Origin: a virus
Taxonomy: Duplodnaviria > Heunggongvirae > Uroviricota > Caudoviricetes
Reading direction: 5' to 3' (one strand)
IMG/VR virus record: IMGVR_UViG_2541047688_000007
Location: 1-25,205 of that record
Length of the DNA stretch: 25,205 nucleotides
Shown here piece after piece: positions 3,354 to 23,891 of this stretch (its first letter is position 1; every line of letters starts with the position of its first letter). Made by a program: the position numbers and the translations under genes. The notes beneath the pieces are model-generated. The model searched no databases and had not been told where the DNA came from. It saw nothing but the letters and a program-made list of their open reading frames with translations.

Positions 3354-4403
3354 TCAAACGATTAAATCCTGAACTTCCCTGACTGTCTGCTCAAAACGTC
3401 CGGTCTCCAGTTCAACGCCAATCGCACGACGCCCGAGCGCCAGTGCCGCTTTTACCGTTGAACCTGAGCCCATAAAAAAATCTGCAACCAGGTCACCCGG
3501 ACGACTGCTTGCGCTGATTATCTGCTGCAGCATTTCTGCCGGTTTTTCGCACGGATGTTTCCCGGGATAGAACTGCACCGGTTTATGTGTCCATACATCC
3601 GTGTACGGCACCTGCGCCGTCACACCAAAATACCGCCGCAGATGCTTATATTCACTCTGCAGCTCCACATACTGCCGGTTCAGTGACGTATACGTATCCA
3701 CCAGCTGGTGGTGGGGCTTTTCCAGTTCACCGCGCTGATGTTTCTCTTCTGCCACCCGGGCAAACAGCGACTGTAATTTCAGATAATCGCTTTCGTTCGG
3801 TAGCTGCCACTGACTGGCACTGAACCAGTGCGACACCATGTTTTTCTTTCCTGTGACATCTGCAATCTGTTTTGCCGTTATCCCCAGGGCCGCGCGCGCA
3901 TCACGAAAGTAAGAAATCAGCGGGGCCATCACATGCTGTTTCAGTGCACTGCCCTTCGCCGCATACCCGGCATCTTTCGGACGATACGGCCCCTGATAAT
4001 GTTCCGCGAACAGAATGCGCTCTGTGGCGGGGAAATACGCCCGCAGGCTTTCCTTGTTGCATCCGTTCCAGCGTCCGGACGGCTTCGCCCAGATAATATG
4101 GTTCAGCACACTGAAGCGTTCACGCATCATGATTTCGATATCAGATGCCAGGCGATGACCACAGAACAGGTAAAGACTTCCGGCAGGTTTCAGCACCCGC
4201 CAGAACTGCGCCAGACACTGGTCCAGCCACTTCAGGTAATCATCGTCGCCCTTCCACTGGTTATCCCAGCCCTCAGGCTTCACTTTAAAGTACGGCGGGT
4301 CCGTGACTATCAGGTCAACAGAATTTTCGGGTAACGACCGGATAAATTCCAGGCAGTCGGCGTTGATTAACTCACAACTGGATATTTTTACAGTATTAAG
4401 CAT
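3354..4403 (-). CDS. DNA amino-methyltransferase (N6-adenine or N4-cytosine), beta-class
   Basis: 349-aa ORF with catalytic DPPY motif near N-terminus (LIVTDPPYF) and AdoMet-binding FxGxG motif near C-terminus (DFFMGSGST). Confidence 0.85.
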   Translation of the reverse strand: MLNTVKISSCELINADCLEFIRSLPENSVDLIVTDPPYFKVKPEGWDNQWKGDDDYLKWLDQCLAQFWRVLKPAGSLYLFCGHRLASDIEIMMRERFSVLNHIIWAKPSGRWNGCNKESLRAYFPATERILFAEHYQGPYRPKDAGYAAKGSALKQHVMAPLISYFRDARAALGITAKQIADVTGKKNMVSHWFSASQWQLPNESDYLKLQSLFARVAEEKHQRGELEKPHHQLVDTYTSLNRQYVELQSEYKHLRRYFGVTAQVPYTDVWTHKPVQFYPGKHPCEKPAEMLQQIISASSRPGDLVADFFMGSGSTVKAALALGRRAIGVELETGRFEQTVREVQDLIV

Positions 4404-4540
4404 GGATCATTAAGCCTGTCTCTGATAGGCTCATTCTGCTTTTGCGCAAAGCAGTGGGCCTGAGGTTTGCTTGTGAACCCAACGCATGAGCAGATGGCTG
4501 GTGGGTGCCCCTAACACCCACCAGCCGCCCATTTACCACA

Positions 4541-4567
4541 AATAAAAAAGCCTTCACTGCGGAAGGC
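4541..4567 (-). terminator. rho-independent terminator after small wHTH gene
   Basis: Minus-strand GCCTTC-CGCAGT-GAAGGC hairpin followed by TTTTTTATTT; hairpin overlaps the stop codon at 4554-4556. Confidence 0.45.
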
Positions 4568-4751
4568 GTCTGTAACAACCGAACTGATAGTCTGCCAGAC
4601 CCGCCATAACCAGCTGGGTCAGTATTAACTGGCAGCGTTCGCGTGAAAGGTAAGTATTCTGCGCTATCTCCCCGACTGTCGCCGGTTCGGTAACGCTTAA
4701 TTCATTAAACACTACTCTGGCGGTTTCTGTCATATCCTGCTGTTTTAGCAT
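4554..4751 (-). CDS. small winged-helix/HTH-like DNA-binding protein (65 aa), hypothetical regulator
   Basis: Internal ATG at 4749-4751 with AAGGGA SD; MLKQQDMTETARVVFNELSVTEPATVGEIAQNTYLSRERCQLILTQLVMAGLADYQFGCYRRLPQ has an HTH-like core; the 144-aa track form has a low-quality N-terminal extension running through a terminator and the neighbouring promoter. Confidence 0.45.
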   Translation of the reverse strand: MLKQQDMTETARVVFNELSVTEPATVGEIAQNTYLSRERCQLILTQLVMAGLADYQFGCYRRLPQ

Positions 4752-4874
4752 GTCTTTTTCCCTTTTCCGGTTAACGTGACACACCAATAACTCTTGTCGA
4801 AAAAGCCAGCAAGCTGAAAGACAGGTATTCGCAACCACCAGCACGTTTAACGTACTGCGCCGTTTTTCGGACAC

Positions 4875-4895
4875 AAAAAACCGCCTGGCGGCGGG
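4875..4895 (-). terminator. rho-independent terminator-like hairpin (minus strand)
   Basis: Minus-strand CCGCC-GCCA-GGCGG hairpin followed by TTTTTT (plus-strand A6 at 4875-4880). Confidence 0.35.
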
Positions 4896-4943
4896 TTTAA
4901 GCTGTGTGGCGTAGTAACCACTCTTAACACGATATAATATTTT

Positions 4944-4972
4944 TTGCGTACGCGTTATAGTTTTCTTACAAT
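4944..4972 (+). promoter_or_regulatory. candidate sigma70 promoter for the DUF262-HEPN operon
   Basis: TTGCGT (4944-4949), 17-bp spacer, TACAAT (4967-4972), about 30 nt upstream of the AAAGGAAC SD and ATG at 5005. Confidence 0.45.
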
Positions 4973-5004
4973 CTATTTCCAACTCCAATTAAAGGAACAG
5001 TGAT

Positions 5005-6162
5005 ATGACCACACTCAAAGAACTCAAAGAAGAGCTTGCTCAGATTCAAGATGAAAACGCGAAAAATAGAAAAAAAGCTGAAATTGCAGCCTTGGTCACT
5101 TCTGCCGACAACGAGATTAGGCTTGCTCAGAGAAATATTGGATACAACGTACGTGAATGGACCGTTGAATTAATTGTACAAAAGTATGGCAATAATCTTG
5201 AAACTGACAAAAACGAACTTTTTATTCCTGATTATCAACGCGATTACAAATGGGATATCAAAACAGCCTCTCGATTCATCGAAAGTATATTATTAGATTT
5301 TCCAATCCCGTACCTCTACATCTCCGACGTATTTAATGAAGATCCTGAGTTGGATGGTCGTGTAGAAATTATTGACGGTTCACAAAGGATTCGCTCAATT
5401 TACTACTTTTGGAACAATCAGTTTGAATTGAAAGACTTAAAAGAACTCAAAAGTTTAGAGGGCTTCAAATTTTCAGATCTTTTGGCTAGCCGCCAGAGGC
5501 GATTTTTAAGGGCATCACTAAGATTTATTGAATTGAAAGGTGATGTTGAGGAGCAGCATAGAAGAGATTTATTCGAAAGAATAAATTCAGGTGTTAAGAG
5601 ACTGGAAGCGATGGAGGTTAGACATGGTTCAGATGCGGCCACTTCAATTTTCTATAGGGATGTTGTGACTCCTTGCTCAACAAATCCACTTTTCGCTAGT
5701 CTAGCTCCATTATCAGATCGGAAACGTTCGAATGGCGATCATCGTGAGTTAGTTTTGAGATTTTTTGCATACTTAAATGATTTAGAAAATTATAAGGGTT
5801 ATGTCGCTCCTTTTATTGACAATTATCTTAATGTTCAGGCCGAAAGGGTCACACAACAAGATGTAGACAAATTTAAACATGATTTTGAAAGCATGCTTGC
5901 TTTTGTAGATGCTCATTTCCCTATGGGGTTTAAAAAGACACCAACAAGCAAAACCACCCCCCGTGCTAGATACGAAGCCATAGCAGTGGGAACTGCTCTT
6001 GCCTTAAAAGCCAATCCACATCTACAGGCTCCGGTTATTCCTGTAGGAGACTGGCTGTTTGGGGAGGAATTTGAAACCATAGTTACTGCTGATAGTGCCA
6101 ACAACACCAGCCAACTCAAAAACAGAATATTTTATGTCAAAGATAAATTATTAGGAATGTAA
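5005..6162 (+). CDS. DUF262 (ParB/Srx-like) domain protein, GmrS-type N-terminal module without recognisable DUF1524 nuclease domain
   Basis: 385-aa ORF; DUF262 signatures FIPDYQRDYKW and IIDGSQRIRS (DGQQR-type motif); no His-Me finger motif seen in C-terminal half; AT-rich codon usage. Confidence 0.75.
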   Translation: MTTLKELKEELAQIQDENAKNRKKAEIAALVTSADNEIRLAQRNIGYNVREWTVELIVQKYGNNLETDKNELFIPDYQRDYKWDIKTASRFIESILLDFPIPYLYISDVFNEDPELDGRVEIIDGSQRIRSIYYFWNNQFELKDLKELKSLEGFKFSDLLASRQRRFLRASLRFIELKGDVEEQHRRDLFERINSGVKRLEAMEVRHGSDAATSIFYRDVVTPCSTNPLFASLAPLSDRKRSNGDHRELVLRFFAYLNDLENYKGYVAPFIDNYLNVQAERVTQQDVDKFKHDFESMLAFVDAHFPMGFKKTPTSKTTPRARYEAIAVGTALALKANPHLQAPVIPVGDWLFGEEFETIVTADSANNTSQLKNRIFYVKDKLLGM

Positions 6163-6164
6163 CT

Positions 6165-6854
6165 ATGAGTTTGATTGATTTAAGAGATGAATACGAAGAA
6201 AGAGCAAGAGATATTATGGAATTGCTTTCTCTTGCGTCATCTTTAGAGGCTCAGACTCAGCAGTTAGATCAGCAAACGCATAAAGATGAAATAGAATCAA
6301 ATACCCTTAGGGTTAACATTTTAAAATCATCCGTGCACATGATGCTGTACAATCAGGTTGAAAACACTGCCAGAGGATGCATTGAGTCAATTTATGACCA
6401 TTTGCAAGATAATGAAGTAAATTACGCATCACTCAGGGAGAAATTCCAAGTAAATATCTTGCACCGTATCATTTCAGATAATGAATCGGGAAAATCTCTT
6501 TATCAAAAAATTGGTTCCGATATATCTAAAAGGATCATTTCAGCCTCATTAAACATACGTAAAGAATTCAATGGTAATGTTTGCAAGTCTGTATTGCACA
6601 AAATAACACAAGCTTACGGAATAACTGTTGCAAACTCACCAGAGTGTAGAAATGGTGTTGACTTAGATTTACTTAAAGATATCAGAAATGAGCTGGCACA
6701 TGGAAGTACCAGCTTTTCTAAAAAAGGTCAAATAGACCCTTTAGAAGAAGTCAAATCGAGGTCAGAAAGAATTGATCTATATTTGCGTTTATTAATCAAC
6801 TCAACAGAAAATTATATTACCTCTAACGGGTATTTATCCCCTCAACATGTCTGA
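6165..6854 (+). CDS. HEPN-like domain protein (putative RNase/abortive-infection effector)
   Basis: 229-aa ORF starting 2 nt after the DUF262 stop; C-terminal R-x4-H-G motif DIRNELAHG (residues ~174-180) typical of HEPN superfamily; assignment from motif only. Confidence 0.6.
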   Translation: MSLIDLRDEYEERARDIMELLSLASSLEAQTQQLDQQTHKDEIESNTLRVNILKSSVHMMLYNQVENTARGCIESIYDHLQDNEVNYASLREKFQVNILHRIISDNESGKSLYQKIGSDISKRIISASLNIRKEFNGNVCKSVLHKITQAYGITVANSPECRNGVDLDLLKDIRNELAHGSTSFSKKGQIDPLEEVKSRSERIDLYLRLLINSTENYITSNGYLSPQHV

Positions 6855-7863
6855 TAAATGTTTCCCCTATTATCTGACCAATTATAGGGGGAACAGCATT
6901 TCCAATCATTGTCCCCAATTTTTGGAATGAAAAAGGCGTCTCCTTGTCAAGGAATTTATAATCCATTGGAAAGGATTGCAAAATCGCAGCTTCACGCAAA
7001 GTTATGGCGCGATTTTGCTCAGGATGGCCAAATCGTCCATTTCCATATCCATAACACTGGGTAGTTATCGTAGGGCTAGTATCGTCCCAAACCATCCGTC
7101 CATAAACGCTTTTATAGGTAGCACCTGAATTCTTTTTATGACAGTCTGCTCTAATTTCTTCAGGCCAGTCATCCCACGTACCACCAGGTAAAGAATGCAT
7201 GATTCGTTTAAGATTGATATCCATCAATTTAGGCGAACGATGCAAGGGATCGCTTTCCAGCTTCTCACCTGCCCCTACTTTTGGCAACCTACCAATAGCA
7301 TCCTTAACAGTAACTTTACGGCTAACTTTTTTTTGATCAAGGCTGATCGGCCCCAATTGGGAACCAATTAGAATTAATCTACGTCTATTTTGAGGTAAGC
7401 CATACTCAGAACATCTTACAACGTCGTACCACAAATGATATCCAAGAGTCTTTAATGCACTAACAAACCCTTCAAAAACCTTATGGTTTCTAAGTTGAGG
7501 AACATTCTCCATCGTCACAAGCTCTGGCATTACATCACTTACAAGCCTTTGAAACTCATATAACAAACGCCACTTTGTATCGTCTTTACGGCTATTTGGA
7601 TTACGATACTTGGAAAACGGTTGGCAAGGAGCACATCCAGCAAGCAATCTAATATTTCCTTCCTTGAACATAGCAGACACATCGCAGGATTGCAGTTCTG
7701 TAACTGACTGATTAATGAACTGCGTTAAAGGATTATTGCTCTCAATAGCAAAACGGCAGGATTCATCAATATCAATACCATGAGAAACCTCAATCCCGGC
7801 TTTTTTTAGCCCAAAAGTTAAGCCCCCCGCACCACAAAAAATGTCTACTGCCTGAATGTTCAC
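6823..7863 (-). CDS. DNA (cytosine-5)-methyltransferase
   Basis: 346-aa ORF with C5-MTase motifs I (FCGAGG), IV (GCAPCQPFS, catalytic Cys), VI (ENV), QRRR and GNAV; GTG start at 7861-7863 with GGAG SD; 3' end overlaps HEPN gene by 32 bp (convergent). Confidence 0.9.
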   Translation of the reverse strand: MNIQAVDIFCGAGGLTFGLKKAGIEVSHGIDIDESCRFAIESNNPLTQFINQSVTELQSCDVSAMFKEGNIRLLAGCAPCQPFSKYRNPNSRKDDTKWRLLYEFQRLVSDVMPELVTMENVPQLRNHKVFEGFVSALKTLGYHLWYDVVRCSEYGLPQNRRRLILIGSQLGPISLDQKKVSRKVTVKDAIGRLPKVGAGEKLESDPLHRSPKLMDINLKRIMHSLPGGTWDDWPEEIRADCHKKNSGATYKSVYGRMVWDDTSPTITTQCYGYGNGRFGHPEQNRAITLREAAILQSFPMDYKFLDKETPFSFQKLGTMIGNAVPPIIGQIIGETFIRHVEGINTR

Positions 7864-7926
7864 AAGATTCTCCGTTACTTTATCCTGGTATTATATACAC
7901 ATAAAAGTTGGGAAAGTAGAACGATT

Positions 7927-8295
7927 TTACATAGAACTTAAGTCATTGTAGTAAATGAAAAATGACAAGCAGCCATCAATAAACCCCATTGCTGTTTGCA
8001 TCTCTTTCCGTATTGTTCCATCTGAACATTTCCGTTTTTTAGCAATAGCGCGTAATGAGATACCAATAACAAAGTGAGCAATGATCAACTCATACTCTTC
8101 GGGTTTATACTTTCGCAACCGAGCCACACAACCGTCTATCATGATACCTTCGTCATCATCACACTGGAGACGTGACTTTTTACCGTGTGGTAAAAGCCCC
8201 TTGAAGCCTGCTGCTATCGGCTGCCAGTCCACACCACTGTTATCTGCTGCAGCCCAGGCCCCCCAACGATCTAAAACTTCGTACATATCACGCAT
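7927..8295 (-). CDS. Q: late-gene antiterminator Q (phage 82/QuuD-like family)
   Basis: 122-aa ORF MRDMYEVLDRWGAWAAADNSGVDWQPIAAGFKGL... with Cys-rich zinc-binding-like region; resembles the small Q proteins of phage 82 and the DLP12 prophage as I recall them; last gene of the coupled early operon. Confidence 0.7.
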   Translation of the reverse strand: MRDMYEVLDRWGAWAAADNSGVDWQPIAAGFKGLLPHGKKSRLQCDDDEGIMIDGCVARLRKYKPEEYELIIAHFVIGISLRAIAKKRKCSDGTIRKEMQTAMGFIDGCLSFFIYYNDLSSM

Positions 8296-8552
8296 CAGCG
8301 CAGTACCTCCTGCACCAGTTTTTCAAACTTACCAACTCTGGTTTCCAGCTCTGCCACACAATCCACCAGCTCATCCACTGCTTTTTGTGCACGGTGTTTT
8401 GCCTGCATCAGTTCCCTGAGCGCTGGCACCATATCCCGACGAATGGCATCTTTTGTTACACCTGTTTTTTCCAGTTGTTCCGCCTGCCGCAACATTTCCT
8501 GTGCCTGTTTACGTAATTGCTCAGGGGTAAAAGTCATTGTCTGGTTGTTCAA
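8295..8552 (-). CDS. hypothetical coiled-coil protein (~80-85 aa)
   Basis: ORF overlapping the DnaB stop (TTG at 8550-8552 or ATG at 8535-8537) and the Q start (ATGA); charged helical sequence, no recognised motif. Confidence 0.45.
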   Translation of the reverse strand: MNNQTMTFTPEQLRKQAQEMLRQAEQLEKTGVTKDAIRRDMVPALRELMQAKHRAQKAVDELVDCVAELETRVGKFEKLVQEVLR

Positions 8553-9949
8553 AAGAAACGCTCCATCTTACTGCTGTCAGTTCGTTTGTTGCTGTATCTG
8601 CGCGGCTGGGGCTGTTGCATTGGGGTGGAAAGAACCTGTGCGCTTTCCTGATCCACAGGCAGAAAATGTCCGTTATAAAAACGCCGATAAATCGTCCCCA
8701 GAGAACCGTTACGTTGTTTCGTGATATTGATTTCTGCGATGCCCCTGGCCTGCGTATCCGGGTTGTACACTTCATCCCTGTAAAGCATCAGAATGATGTC
8801 TGCATCCGCCTCTATTTCTCCGGAATTTTTCAGGTCTGAGTTCATGGGGCGTTTATTGGGTCTGGACTCCACACCGCGGGAGAGCTGGCTCAGCGCAATC
8901 AACGGAAAACCACCGGATTTTGCCAGGCCTTTAAGCCCCTTTGAGATTTCACCCACGGCAAGGTCATGACGCCCCGTGGTTCGGGTTTTTATCAGCCCGA
9001 GATAATCAACCACCACCAGCGCCGTTTCCGGATGTTTAATCAGGTGATGTTTCGTTGTTGCGCATATCTCATCAATGGTCAGGTTCGCCTGGTCCACCAT
9101 CCAGATATTGCGCCCGGTCATCCGCCCCACTCCTTGTGAGAAACGTGCCCAGTCTTCGTCTTCAAAGTGAGTGACAGATTTCAGGCGTGATACCGGCATT
9201 CCTCCAGCCGCAGATACCATGCGTTCACCAATCTGGATGTTCGCCATTTCCATTGTGAACAGGAGAACGCCGTGCCCCTGTTCAGTCACCTTGTCGATGA
9301 TATCCAGCGCCAGTTCGGTTTTACCCATCGAAGGACGAGCAGCAATAAATACCAGGTCGCCGGGCTCCATGCCGCCTGTTTTTGCGTCCAGTTCATCAAT
9401 ACCGGTCATCAACGTTCTGGATTTCTCCTGTCCCTGATTCCGGCATTCAACACGCTCAACCACCTCCGGAAGCACATCATCAATATGTACCGGCTGAATA
9501 ATGCCCTTTTCCGTCGACAATGAGGCCATCATGTTCTGCGCATCCTTCAGGGCATCTTCAGCTGCTTCACAGGTATGCGCATCACGTAATTTCTGCAACG
9601 CCTCATTCAGCGTTTTTTCTGCATCGCGCAATGCGGCATTGCGCCGCAACGCTGCAACATAGTGCTCCAGTGAAGACTTCACCCAGGTTTTGCGCCCGGT
9701 ATCAGTAATCACCGGGGCAAGTTCCGGCATCTCATTACACAACAGCACAGGGTCAATCACGCCTGAAACACGGGCCTGTCTGCAGATGCCTGTGTAGATA
9801 TCCCTATACGCTCGTACAGAAAAAACGTCCGCAGGTAGTGTGACCAGAATATCCATCACTTCAGGATCTGCCCCACGCAGAAAGAACGCACCGATGACAG
9901 CGCCTTCCAGGTCATCGTTACGCCATGCCGGGGTGTTCTGGCTGGTCAT
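8549..9949 (-). CDS. replicative DNA helicase, DnaB family
   Basis: 466-aa ORF with Walker A (ARPSMGKT), Walker B-like (LVVVDYLGL) and DnaB-type N-terminal domain. Confidence 0.9.
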   Translation of the reverse strand: MTSQNTPAWRNDDLEGAVIGAFFLRGADPEVMDILVTLPADVFSVRAYRDIYTGICRQARVSGVIDPVLLCNEMPELAPVITDTGRKTWVKSSLEHYVAALRRNAALRDAEKTLNEALQKLRDAHTCEAAEDALKDAQNMMASLSTEKGIIQPVHIDDVLPEVVERVECRNQGQEKSRTLMTGIDELDAKTGGMEPGDLVFIAARPSMGKTELALDIIDKVTEQGHGVLLFTMEMANIQIGERMVSAAGGMPVSRLKSVTHFEDEDWARFSQGVGRMTGRNIWMVDQANLTIDEICATTKHHLIKHPETALVVVDYLGLIKTRTTGRHDLAVGEISKGLKGLAKSGGFPLIALSQLSRGVESRPNKRPMNSDLKNSGEIEADADIILMLYRDEVYNPDTQARGIAEINITKQRNGSLGTIYRRFYNGHFLPVDQESAQVLSTPMQQPQPRRYSNKRTDSSKMERFF

Positions 9950-12194: not shown

Positions 12195-13042
12195 GGGCGA
12201 ACCTCCTTGTCAGAACCATTCAGCCTGGAATCAACAAGTGCAGCGCCAAAAACAGCATCACCAACACGGTCGTACAGTTTGCTAGCCAGCGGAGATTCAA
12301 CGGCCTTAAGCATTGGATAAAGCTGGCTTGTCCAGATTTGATGGATTTCACGCAAATGCAGGTATACGCCTCTGGCGTTTCGTGCGACAGCTGACATATC
12401 AGACGTATCGGCACCTGATAAACTCTTCTCCATCAGGTTAAAGGCGTTGATGTATGCCTCTTTGAACCGGGCAGCACGTTTACCAGTGAAGCCCATGGCA
12501 AGGAACGCGAAGCCATCGCGGGTGATTTGATAGCAAGGTAGTTTGCGGCCTGATGCGTCGGTGTATTCACTTAACACAAAATTGTGTTCAGTAAATTCAG
12601 CGGAACATTCGAGGTTTCTAATTCTATCTAAAACCCGCTCATGCCGTTTAGTAAAGTAATTAGCTACTGCAAGAGATGTGGTGACAACGCGACCATTGAT
12701 AATCGTGATTTCAGGGTGAGATTGGGTTGGGAGAGTAGTCATGGTGACAGCCCCTATGTTGAATTCAATGAACTCACCACCAAGGCTTTCCACGACCATA
12801 TAGGTGGTGAGACGTACAGGGGTGGAAATACCGGTCAACATAGAACCCGGCCCAACCGAAGTTGGCCCTGCACGCCCCACCATAATTTGGGCGTAACGAT
12901 GCTCATGACACGAAAAAACCGCATGAGCGCGGTTGTGCTCTATATTGAATTTCGGGTTTCCACGCCCGGCACCCGCTTTATAAGGTGCAGAGACAGTGTA
13001 ACGTCCCGAAATTGCAGAATCAATATGCTGGTGGCGGATCAT
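12191..13042 (-). CDS. Rha-family phage regulatory protein (paralog 2)
   Basis: Core ITIINGRVVTTSLAVANYFTKRHERVLDRIRNLECSAEF...ITRDGFAFLAMGFTGKRAARFKEAYINAFNLME matches the Rha (Phage_pRha) pattern as I recall it; ~100-aa N-terminal extension whose first residues are shared with the upstream paralog. Confidence 0.7.
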   Translation of the reverse strand: MIRHQHIDSAISGRYTVSAPYKAGAGRGNPKFNIEHNRAHAVFSCHEHRYAQIMVGRAGPTSVGPGSMLTGISTPVRLTTYMVVESLGGEFIEFNIGAVTMTTLPTQSHPEITIINGRVVTTSLAVANYFTKRHERVLDRIRNLECSAEFTEHNFVLSEYTDASGRKLPCYQITRDGFAFLAMGFTGKRAARFKEAYINAFNLMEKSLSGADTSDMSAVARNARGVYLHLREIHQIWTSQLYPMLKAVESPLASKLYDRVGDAVFGAALVDSRLNGSDKEVRP

Positions 13043-13701
13043 AGGTGCACCTCCCGTTGATTACGACGGAACGCGGAGTGACCCTGGACGGTTTCAGCCT
13101 CATGGAATGCTTCAATACAGCTCTCGTAGTACCGCATTGTGCGCAGACTTAACCCAAGCTGAAGCATCATCAGACCATCAAGGGTGATGTAATAACCACG
13201 CAGGGAGTCACCGTAGATGTGATAAGTACCCGGTATGAAATTGCGGGTAAAAAACTCGCGTGAGCAGTTCAGATACTCGATTTTGTCGACGATGTTCTGG
13301 TGCATGCGCTTAAAGTGGCAGGCAACATGCAGGGAGAAAATAACGGCCTTGCCGTTGACAACTTCAATTTTGAGGAATGGGGAAGTTGGGACTGTAGCCA
13401 TGATGGCAGCCTCCGTTGACTGTGGAAAACTTCCACCACCGGAGCTGCGAAACTCACTGGTGGCAGACTGAACAGGGTTCGCAGTACCGGCGTCAACGGA
13501 GACCGGCGAGCCTTTCGGCTCCCCTGCCCAGCCCACCATAATTCTGGCGTGCGTGAGCGCGGACGATAAAAAAGACGCTGGCGCGTCATATATCGCCGTT
13601 GACAATTCCGGGCTGCGACCCCCGGCACCCGCTTTATAAGGTGCAGAGACAGTGTAACGTCCCGAAATTGCAGAATCAATATTTGGTCTTGAAATGATCA
13701 T
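13039..13701 (-). CDS. Rha-family phage regulatory protein (paralog 1, divergent)
   Basis: Core EVVNGKAVIFSLHVACHFKRMHQNIVDKIEYLNCSREF...ITLDGLMMLQLGL resembles the Rha domain; N-terminal DSAISGRYTVSAPYKAGAG shared with the downstream paralog. Confidence 0.6.
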   Translation of the reverse strand: MIISRPNIDSAISGRYTVSAPYKAGAGGRSPELSTAIYDAPASFLSSALTHARIMVGWAGEPKGSPVSVDAGTANPVQSATSEFRSSGGGSFPQSTEAAIMATVPTSPFLKIEVVNGKAVIFSLHVACHFKRMHQNIVDKIEYLNCSREFFTRNFIPGTYHIYGDSLRGYYITLDGLMMLQLGLSLRTMRYYESCIEAFHEAETVQGHSAFRRNQREVHL

Positions 13702-16585: not shown

Positions 16586-16763
16586 CATAATCGCCGCTTC
16601 GCCCTTCAAGGTACATGCGAACATTTTTATCAATCATTGCGGAAACAGTCTCAATATGAAAACACTTCTGAGACTCGCTATATAGCAGAACTGAAGTGGT
16701 TTACTGAATTTGGCCACCTGAACAGAGGTGATATGCTCACCTCAGAACAACACAGGTGCCATA

Positions 16764-17911
<1,148 letters not shown>

Positions 17912-17967
17912 CTCGGTGGCCAGTTTTTGTTGACCACTTCAGAACATATAAGTCAGCTGAGGAAGCC

Positions 17968-22188: not shown

Positions 22189-22520
22189 AGAATGAATAAA
22201 GCATTTGAACGATGGGTCCACCAGCGTTACGGCAATCGCTATGACCTGACGCGAGATGTTGACGGCTTCTACTGTCGTGAAGTTGTGAAGCGAATGTTTG
22301 AAGTGTGGTGCCACTGCCGTGGGCTGAGTGTTGTGTGAGGTAATACATGGGCAATGTGATTCAACTGGCTCCCAATGAATGGGTTTGTGAAAGCGTTCTT
22401 ATCGCAATTACCGGGCTCAAACCAGGCACAATTCTTCGGGCCCGGAAATGAAGTGGTTTACTGAATTTGGCCACCTGAACAGAGGTGATATGCTCACCTC
22501 AGAACAACACAGGTGCCATA

Positions 22521-23668
<1,148 letters not shown>

Positions 23669-23891
23669 CTCGGTGGCCAGTTTTTGTTGACCACTTCAAA
23701 AGAATGCTGGATGGTTGGAAGAGAGTATATTCACGTATCACCAGACGGTAATCCAAAGCCTTCCAGTGAATGTATGTATAACAGAAAAGCAATAGATGCC
23801 TGGGTCGCCTCAATGAAAAACAAACAACCCAGGTGATTTAATATCATGAAATATGTAAGCTCGTATCGCTCTTGGGCGTCTGGAGGTATCG

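Follow-up and report, generated by a model that had tools for sequence, protein, structure and literature searches.

In Mu-like prophages, homologues of com precede genes for non-specific adenine methylases (PMC3299994), and the Com protein of phage Mu binds a hairpin beside a translation-inhibiting structure (PMC6483171). M.EcoGII is a prophage-borne enzyme of 349 amino acids (aa) that methylates adenine non-specifically, is silent in the lysogen and is harmful if constitutively expressed (PMC5778455). A homologue from Serratia OS31 has been described as non-specific, and the same was predicted by the authors for the phiP27 enzyme (PMC7556043). In lambda and the Shiga-toxin (Stx) phages the late promoter is constitutive and its transcript is terminated as a short RNA, unless Q allows read-through into the genes downstream (PMC7547250). 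Here we describe a small open reading frame (ORF), together with the RNA leader and the methyltransferase gene that follow it, in virus record IMGVR_UViG_2541047688_000007 (Caudoviricetes), of which a stretch of 25,205 nucleotides (nt) was analysed over its full length (the window). The window is a lambda-like Escherichia coli prophage. We propose, with a probability of about 0.4, that the small protein is a dedicated accessory of the toxic methylase, either as its regulator or as its partner, much as in the Com-Mom pair of Mu though with a different fold.

The small ORF and the methyltransferase gene form a conserved two-gene late module that recurs in thousands of lambda-like prophages (Table 1). 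Relatives of the small ORF in data with one genome per species were found at 24 loci of other Enterobacterales species, and in 23 of these the methyltransferase begins 337-354 nt after the start of the small ORF, with a gap of 142-154 nt between the two genes. The methyltransferase is likewise found downstream of the small ORF in every phage and E. coli locus inspected, and in many Shiga-toxin phages the module lies between Q and the stx genes. The motifs of the window enzyme are arranged in beta-class order (DPPY at residues 35-38, FMGSGS near residue 310). It is 65% identical to p25 of Serratia OS31 and 95% identical to the enzyme of phage 1720a-02, which is very similar to M.EcoGII (PMC5778455). 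On these sequence features the window enzyme is of the M.EcoGII type, a relation drawn through the 1720a-02 enzyme and not through the M.EcoGII sequence itself, and we infer that it is non-specific as well.

Judged from its substitution pattern, the small ORF is a genuine gene and not a chance frame, because 22.5% of its synonymous sites differ from phiP27 (pS = 0.225) without any amino-acid change (pN = 0). The ratio of non-synonymous to synonymous substitution (dN/dS) is 0.028 in comparison with SfV, and the family median over 150 pairs is 0.138, values by which purifying selection on the small protein is strong. In most of 21 aligned loci a purine-rich GG(A/T)AAAA block stands at the place of the Shine-Dalgarno (SD) sequence. 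A second in-frame ATG is present at codon 7 (4731-4733; GAT ATG AC) and is nucleotide-invariant in 21 of 22 homologues; residues 1-8 of the protein model have lower confidence, and the small protein could truly begin at Met7. The initial annotation of this DNA had described a 65-aa ORF with a good SD sequence and a winged-helix-like product, placed between two minus-strand terminators of which one overlaps its stop, and divergent from a DUF262 gene. These structural points were borne out: the ATG-TGA frame is preceded by AAGGGA, both terminators were found by a scan, the DUF262 gene lies on the opposite strand at 253 bp, the fold was predicted with confidence and the ORF is conserved as described above.

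The predicted model of the small protein is a minimal winged helix with a mean predicted local distance difference test score (pLDDT) of 93, consisting of helices at residues 9-16, 26-33 and 37-49 and a beta-hairpin wing at residues 53-62. Its topology, H1-(beta1)-H2-H3-beta2-beta3, is that of a winged helix and its close structural neighbours have the same fold; among them are RPA32C and MotA, which are small protein-binding winged helices. The protein matches phrog_331, a phage family with function unknown (E = 1.4e-37; residues 1-64 on positions 35-98 of the 111-position profile). The family is small, falling into 334 clusters when grouped at 90% identity and into 61 representatives when grouped at 50%, and is confined to prophages of Enterobacterales; the 61 relatives were drawn from 1.84 billion cluster representatives, most being partial sequences of this family. 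Its allelic subtypes, at least three in number, differ in helices 1-2 and in the wing, and helix 3 (CQLILTQLVMAGL) is near-invariant as protein while its codons are free to vary. One cysteine (C40) is near-invariant and one subtype has another; a zinc-ribbon pattern is absent. The Pfam TrmB profile (PF01978) scored 18 bits (E = 0.0026), below its gathering cut-off of 25.6 bits; database names for the family are 'hypothetical protein' or the over-reaching 'TrmB family'. NCBIfam gave no match, a sequence search of the PDB returned a chance match only (E = 0.63), and membership of the Z-alpha family was rejected, as the helix-3 Asn/Tyr and the Pro-Pro-x-Trp wing of that family were not found. Full-text literature searches retrieved no paper on the small gene.

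Between the two genes lies a structured RNA leader, which is predicted to consist of a long hairpin followed by a three-stem domain (RNAalifold), whose outer stem is formed by GGUCA and the UGAUC that adjoins the methylase AUG on its 5' side. An SD sequence is absent before the methylase start. The spacer of about 150 nt is far more conserved than the synonymous sites of the small ORF (78% mean column identity across genera). In a MAFFT alignment, 97.5% of the cells pair and 7 pairs show double changes, compared to 0.7 in shuffles, and the copy in the window folds at -60.1 kcal/mol (z = -4.4). When a MAFFT alignment that included distant leaders was folded most of the structure was lost, and a covariance-model alignment was substituted. 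In this alignment, which is fitted to the model and so leans towards its structure, 93.1% of the cells pair and compensatory changes occur in 25 of 35 pairs (12 ± 2 when shuffled, 7-12 when slid). The G-U pairs show that the sense strand of the predicted leader is the late transcript. Of the 27 loci matched by the covariance model, 25 have a leader that ends at the methylase AUG. In Morganella, Hafnia, N15, phiKO2, PY54, Enterobacter and the E. coli PhiR46_1 phages the leader it finds ends exactly where the methylase gene starts; the model also finds a match just upstream of the methylase gene in Serratia OS31 and Vibrio VHML, and gives a weak match, displaced by about 130 nt upstream, in a second Vibrio phage. 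On this comparative evidence the leader is an unannotated RNA, supported by covariation and conserved in both sequence and pairing, that occurs in lambdoid, N15-like and Vibrio phages. A search of 4380-5010 against Rfam at gathering and permissive thresholds identified no family, with weak matches to P26 and mir-2008 below threshold. A 60-aa ORF with a TTG start that runs across the spacer (4396-4578) was dismissed as non-coding, since single-nucleotide indels among homologues break its frame. The hairpin over the stop codon of the small ORF is maintained in other genera by different pairing sequences, with a degenerate T-run there.

Chi sites (GCTGGTGG) were noted throughout the window, 14 in 25 kb compared to an expectation of 0.86, with 10 on the late-sense strand; examples are 4835-4842 (minus), 4518-4525 (minus) and 4497-4504 (plus). 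Two are invariant in the flanks of the small ORF and one pair makes up both arms of the leader hairpin, a hairpin that persists in Providencia without Chi.

An intrinsic terminator lies upstream of the small ORF. The region 4200-5200 contains five terminator-like sites, compared to 1.1 ± 1.0 in shuffles, and the upstream and stop-overlapping hairpins have energies of -10.1 and -8.9 kcal/mol, respectively (z about -2). The place of the upstream terminator is kept in nearly all of the 21 aligned loci, which represent many genera, by stems that differ in sequence yet pair, and the SfV record has an annotated terminator at the same place. Similarity in a six-phage alignment starts at the terminator and runs through the small ORF to the methylase. 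Among the loci inspected, a terminator at the position of tR' is conserved behind at least four types of the Q antiterminator. By analogy with lambda we infer that it is tR', the Q-antiterminated terminator of the late operon. The small ORF is the first gene downstream of it and, because the terminator occupies the tR' position, the late transcript made under Q control probably begins with this gene.

A further element upstream of the terminator is common only to loci with a phiP27-type Q. It directly follows the Q stop codon in the two loci without insertions (L011 and L018) and precedes the terminator in phiP27, EcPF16 and three other loci (L008, L020 and L031). From this distribution it probably holds the late promoter and the Q-utilisation site for phiP27-type Q; the hexamers of a late promoter could not be placed within it with confidence by eye. 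The contigs of L008 and L018, labelled Bacillus sp. MAG and Chryseobacterium sp., carry this enterobacterial prophage module with 79-98% protein identity and are probably contaminating or mis-binned sequence. On the plus strand, a promoter-like site TTGCGT-17-TACAAT was read by eye at 4945-4973 (TTGCGT 4945-4950, TACAAT 4968-4973), which the scanner did not report. This site, in front of DUF262, and the minus-strand Q-linked element overlap around the GCGTACGC palindrome (4895-4973), and if the late promoter is there, two back-to-back promoters may interfere with each other.

Before the small ORF lies a bipartite motif that occurs once in the window, with a -35-like TTGCTG (4812..4807) and a -10-like TATTGG (4789..4784) separated by a 17-nt spacer. 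Its core bases are invariant across the 21 loci, where it reads TTGCTG-17-TAT(T/C)(G/T)G. The exact pattern is present once each in 23 of 31 loci; in 22 of these it lies about 60 nt ahead of the start codon of an intact small ORF, and the remaining one (L028) has a truncated small ORF. Its AGAGTTA box is found at about -42 before the small ORF in 24 of 27 loci. Ten of the 27 have another AGAGTTA 21 nt ahead of the methylase AUG, a place at which 21 of 27 have CAGAG. The motif is putatively promoter-like, with a G at the last -10 position (-7) that makes use by sigma-70 doubtful. A sigma-70 scanner found no promoter in 4200-5200, and no convincing dyad symmetry was seen in the motif. A possible RNA hairpin spanning the AGAGTTA box was discounted, because in a manual reading of the alignment the substitutions between two motif variants break its pairing. 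A literature check of the known prophage small RNAs AgvB/AsxR, Pas and StxS found them to be located elsewhere or to be other elements.

A reason for control of the methylase is given by M.EcoGII, which is silent in lysogens and harmful when constitutive (PMC5778455). According to the proposed role, transcripts from the constitutive late promoter would halt at tR' in the lysogen, and the second hairpin or terminator at the stop of the small ORF would add to the shut-off. The leader would hide the methylase start, which has no SD sequence of its own, and the three elements together would keep the toxic methylase silent. Upon induction, Q-modified RNA polymerase would pass both terminators, so that the small ORF is transcribed first, followed by the leader and the methylase. 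The small protein would then tune the amount or the action of the methylase. Its likeliest targets would be the AGAGTTA box before its own gene, the CAGAG(TTA) box 21 nt before the methylase AUG and the leader hairpins; binding to the methylase enzyme itself would be less likely. Within this accessory role, a Com-like action on the leader or on the AGAG boxes is somewhat favoured. The linkage of the two genes, their place behind the terminator at the tR' position, the covarying leader, the cis boxes, the near-invariant helix 3 and the precedent of com speak for the accessory role.

Several findings weigh against the proposed role. By itself, M.EcoGII shows activity in vitro (PMC5778455). The leader and the methylase are found with no detectable winged-helix ORF in Serratia OS31 and Vibrio VHML, and the small protein is therefore not obligatory for either. 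Truncated copies of the small ORF occur at two loci (L024 and L028) in which the methylase gene is intact. The flanks of the ORF are near-identical between SfV and mEp460 and the ORFs themselves are 53% identical, showing that small-ORF subtypes swap independently of the methylase, and the conserved linkage of the two genes could partly be due to shared ancestry of the whole block. The small-protein family is acidic (median net charge -1, pI 5.6). When the protein is aligned to the TrmB profile, the residues exposed on helix 3 are Q41, L42, T45, Q46, V48 and M49, which do not make a basic face. Both features argue against nucleic-acid binding, and by its sequence this face seems better suited to bind protein than nucleic acid.

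The acidity of the family and a helix 3 that is near-invariant as protein and largely non-basic where exposed would fit a protein-binding adaptor for a host or phage protein, without a role in gene expression. Such an adaptor could modulate the activity or targeting of the methylase, or inhibit a host factor that harms DNA rich in N6-methyladenine (m6A), for example an m6A-dependent restriction enzyme. The presence of RPA32C and MotA among the structural neighbours points the same way, as do the surfaces of H1-H2 and the wing, which vary between the subtypes, and a weak match of the homologue N15 gp51 to the PCI protein-scaffold domain (E = 0.0019, below the curated cut-off). However, no fusion of the small protein to the methylase or to any other domain was found among the 61 cluster representatives, M.EcoGII functions without a partner in vitro (PMC5778455), and the invariant DNA motif before the ORF is left unexplained. 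We consider a pure adaptor possible but not likely.

The small ORF might also be a passenger of the late operon with another or dispensable lytic function, its linkage to the methylase being inherited synteny. The loci with leader and methylase that lack the ORF, the independent exchange of subtypes, and the position of the homologue in N15-like phages, where the annotated late promoter lies between it and the late genes, would fit that case. Yet the linkage holds across at least four Q types, different cargo (stx, tRNAs, holin), several genera and the telomere phages. The surrounding phage DNA is highly mosaic, so that a persistent linkage is unlikely to be accidental, and the purifying selection on the ORF is strong. 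A passenger is unlikely in our view. An accessory role for the small protein at the methylase remains our preferred reading. A more specific version of it, in which the small winged-helix protein and the leader of 130-150 nt form a post-transcriptional switch that governs the non-specific adenine methyltransferases of Stx-converting phages and of other lambda-like and telomere phages, is advanced by analogy as a tentative and rather improbable extension.

The initial annotation had suggested that the small protein might control the divergent DUF262-HEPN cassette, at the level of transcription, in the manner of a C protein. The divergent orientation, the distance to DUF262, the winged-helix fold and the presence of the small ORF beside the cassette in 103 of 107 cassette-bearing E. 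coli genomes speak for it, the last being explained by the insertion site of the cassette. Against it, copies of the small-ORF DNA number 4243, spread over 2269 of the 5426 complete E. coli genomes, compared to 108 places in 107 genomes for the DUF262-HEPN DNA, which always overlaps Dcm, and about 2.5% of the small-ORF copies are near a cassette. EcPF16 has Q, Dcm and the cassette with the same upstream promoter region, followed directly by holin; it has no small ORF within 5 kb of the cassette and no adenine methylase. Neither DUF262 nor HEPN was found within 4 kb of the small ORF in any of the 24 loci of other species (0/24). The DNA from the ORF to the terminator is conserved with the module and beyond the terminator it follows the Q type, so that no cassette-specific operator travels with the ORF, and the PADLOC defence models gave no match to the ORF (0 families). 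Control of the cassette by the small protein is therefore very improbable; a regulatory role as such is still plausible, with the adjacent methylase module and not the cassette as its target.

The DUF262-HEPN-Dcm cassette is unrelated to the small ORF-methylase module and serves as context only. From sequence comparison the Dcm-DUF262-HEPN block appears to have entered between Q and the late promoter region that belongs to it. Where the small ORF of a phage is identical or near-identical to that of the window, the slot has other contents, namely a GIY-YIG nuclease in phiP27, a 138-aa unknown protein in mEp460 and nothing in SfV, which suggests that the slot between Q and the late promoter is a cargo hotspot, because different phages carry different genes in it. 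The 63 bp between the Q stop and the GTG start of Dcm (7864-7926, minus strand) contain a perfect TATAAT and a GGAG ribosome site, both kept in EcPF16, and Dcm probably has its own promoter.

Table 1. Features of the small ORF-methylase module and its surroundings (positions in the window).
Feature	Position	Strand	Sequence or remark
Methyltransferase (beta-class N6-adenine DNA methyltransferase, M.EcoGII family)	3354..4403	minus	349 aa; Pfam N6_N4_Mtase, 2.2e-44
Structured RNA leader of the methyltransferase	4404..4535	minus	directly 5' of the methylase AUG
Hairpin and T-run over the small-ORF stop codon (terminator/attenuator)	4541..4567	minus	GCCTTCCGCAGTGAAGGC + TTTTTTATTT; stem 4567..4550
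Small ORF	4554..4751	minus	65 aa; ATG start, TGA stop; WP_000917767; phrog_331
SD-like sequence	4759..4764	minus	AAGGGA, read from the sequence; last G 8 nt before the ATG
Bipartite promoter-like motif	4780..4813	minus	CTTGCTG-N11-(A/C)AGAGTTA; about 60 nt before the small-ORF ATG
Upstream intrinsic terminator, read as tR'	4874..4894	minus	CCGCCGCCAGGCGG + TTTTTTGTGT; stem 4894..4881
Q-type-specific element	4895..4960	minus	AACGCGTACGCAAAA ... TGTTAAGAGTGGTTAC; spans the 45-65 nt that precede the terminator
DUF262	5005-6162	plus	PADLOC matches NsnA, PD-T4-2_A
HEPN MAE_28990	6165-6854	plus	
Dcm C5-cytosine methylase	6823-7863	minus	convergent; 32-bp overlap with HEPN
Q antiterminator	7927-8295	minus	Pfam PF06530 type
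Replicative helicase	8549-9949	minus	first in the late transcription order listed

The late genes of the window are on the minus strand, and in late order the methyltransferase is followed by three tRNAs, STnc100 RNA, holin, DUF1327, lysozyme and spanin. A stretch of 3.7 kb is 100% identical to strain FAH and to several other human isolates, and about 99% identical to one ST131 genome. Elsewhere in the window, a pair of C4 antisense RNA and isrK was detected in two tandem copies (12800-12988 and 13456-13644, minus strand; Rfam, above gathering score). These pairs sit within the region of the ash/Rha-family genes and resemble a P1/P7-like secondary immunity element that has been duplicated. An IS3-family element is present in two copies on the plus strand (about 16688-17950 and 22445-23700), with HTH_Tnp_1 and rve ORFs. 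A comparison of 300 nt showed 100% identity between the copies, which are direct repeats at a distance of 5757 bp and flank the early-left prophage genes beside the integrase. M.EcoGII-like methylases were also seen with other small neighbours. In Vibrio phage Val-yong3 a 38-aa zinc-ribbon protein (L041, 1032-1148), which recalls Com, is encoded 22 nt upstream of such a methylase, and in the P2-like Aeromonas phage phiO18P a DksA/TraR-type zinc finger (L040, 599-808) stands two genes upstream of one; no match to the leader was found in phiO18P.

M.EcoGII-type enzymes methylate near every adenine, are toxic to the host and are common research tools, and there is no published description of how phages silence them and switch them on. 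The tight coupling of the small gene to enzymes of this type and the conserved leader RNA appear to be undescribed; the interval between Q and stx is among the most closely studied phage DNA, yet no paper on the small gene or the leader was found. If the small protein and the leader do act as a switch, the leader would represent a cis-regulatory RNA family that is new, and the protein would be one of the rare stand-alone winged helices that bind or remodel RNA. The pair would then offer a direct way to test the timing of wholesale DNA methylation, and would be a second, structurally unrelated answer to the Com-Mom problem. The negative result is of use as well, in that the DUF262-HEPN-Dcm cassette is best analysed without the small ORF.

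Controller (C) proteins, known from restriction-modification systems, are dimers of the Xre type with five helices; they recognise palindromic C-boxes and set the timing of a restriction endonuclease. The small protein resembles them in being a small protein of the helix-turn-helix (HTH) class beside a DNA-modification gene, with a conserved DNA motif before its own gene. In contrast to C proteins it is predicted to be a winged helix, no Pfam HTH_3/Xre match was found for it, and no palindromic operator was seen. Nor is there an endonuclease partner: what is conserved next to the ORF is an orphan methyltransferase, with tRNAs, stx or lysis genes behind it, and the sole nearby nuclease (HEPN) is not co-distributed with the ORF. 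For these reasons of fold and partner, membership of the C proteins was rejected. Unlike TrmB, MarR and ArsR regulators, the small protein is a bare, acidic domain of 65 aa with no dimerisation or ligand domain.

With respect to lambda and the Stx phages (pR'-tR', 6S RNA, StxS), the likeness concerns the context and not the ORF, as the terminator at 4881-4894 is in the tR' position. The locus differs from these phages in that a 3-kb insertion separates the Q gene from the Q-linked element and in that the terminated RNA would be short, about 50-60 nt. In N15, phiKO2 and PY54 a small ORF likewise stands beside the same leader and an M.EcoGII-like methylase at the start of the lysis or late region. 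N15 gp51 (75 aa) is a remote homologue of the small protein (hhalign probability 91%) and phiKO2 gp51 is annotated as a winged helix in RefSeq, while ORF59 of PY54 is likened by position only and not by family comparison. The gp51 genes of N15 and phiKO2 differ in lying upstream, not downstream, of an annotated late promoter and terminator, and the helix-3 sequence of gp51 (FIIEQMVCFG) is different.

The closest parallel is with Com-Mom of Mu. In both a small protein, the 62-aa Com there and the 65-aa protein here, has its gene shortly before that of a late enzyme which modifies adenines in phage DNA and is toxic to the host, and the start of the target gene is buried in RNA structure beside a separate hairpin (PMC6483171, PMC3299994). 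The two systems differ in that Com is a CCCC zinc finger and the small protein a predicted winged helix without a zinc motif, that the leader here also exists without the small ORF in some phages, and that the genes here are 150 nt apart with a hairpin or terminator between them. Since it has no zinc finger, the small protein is not a member of the Com family. Of the systems compared it would work most like Com-Mom.

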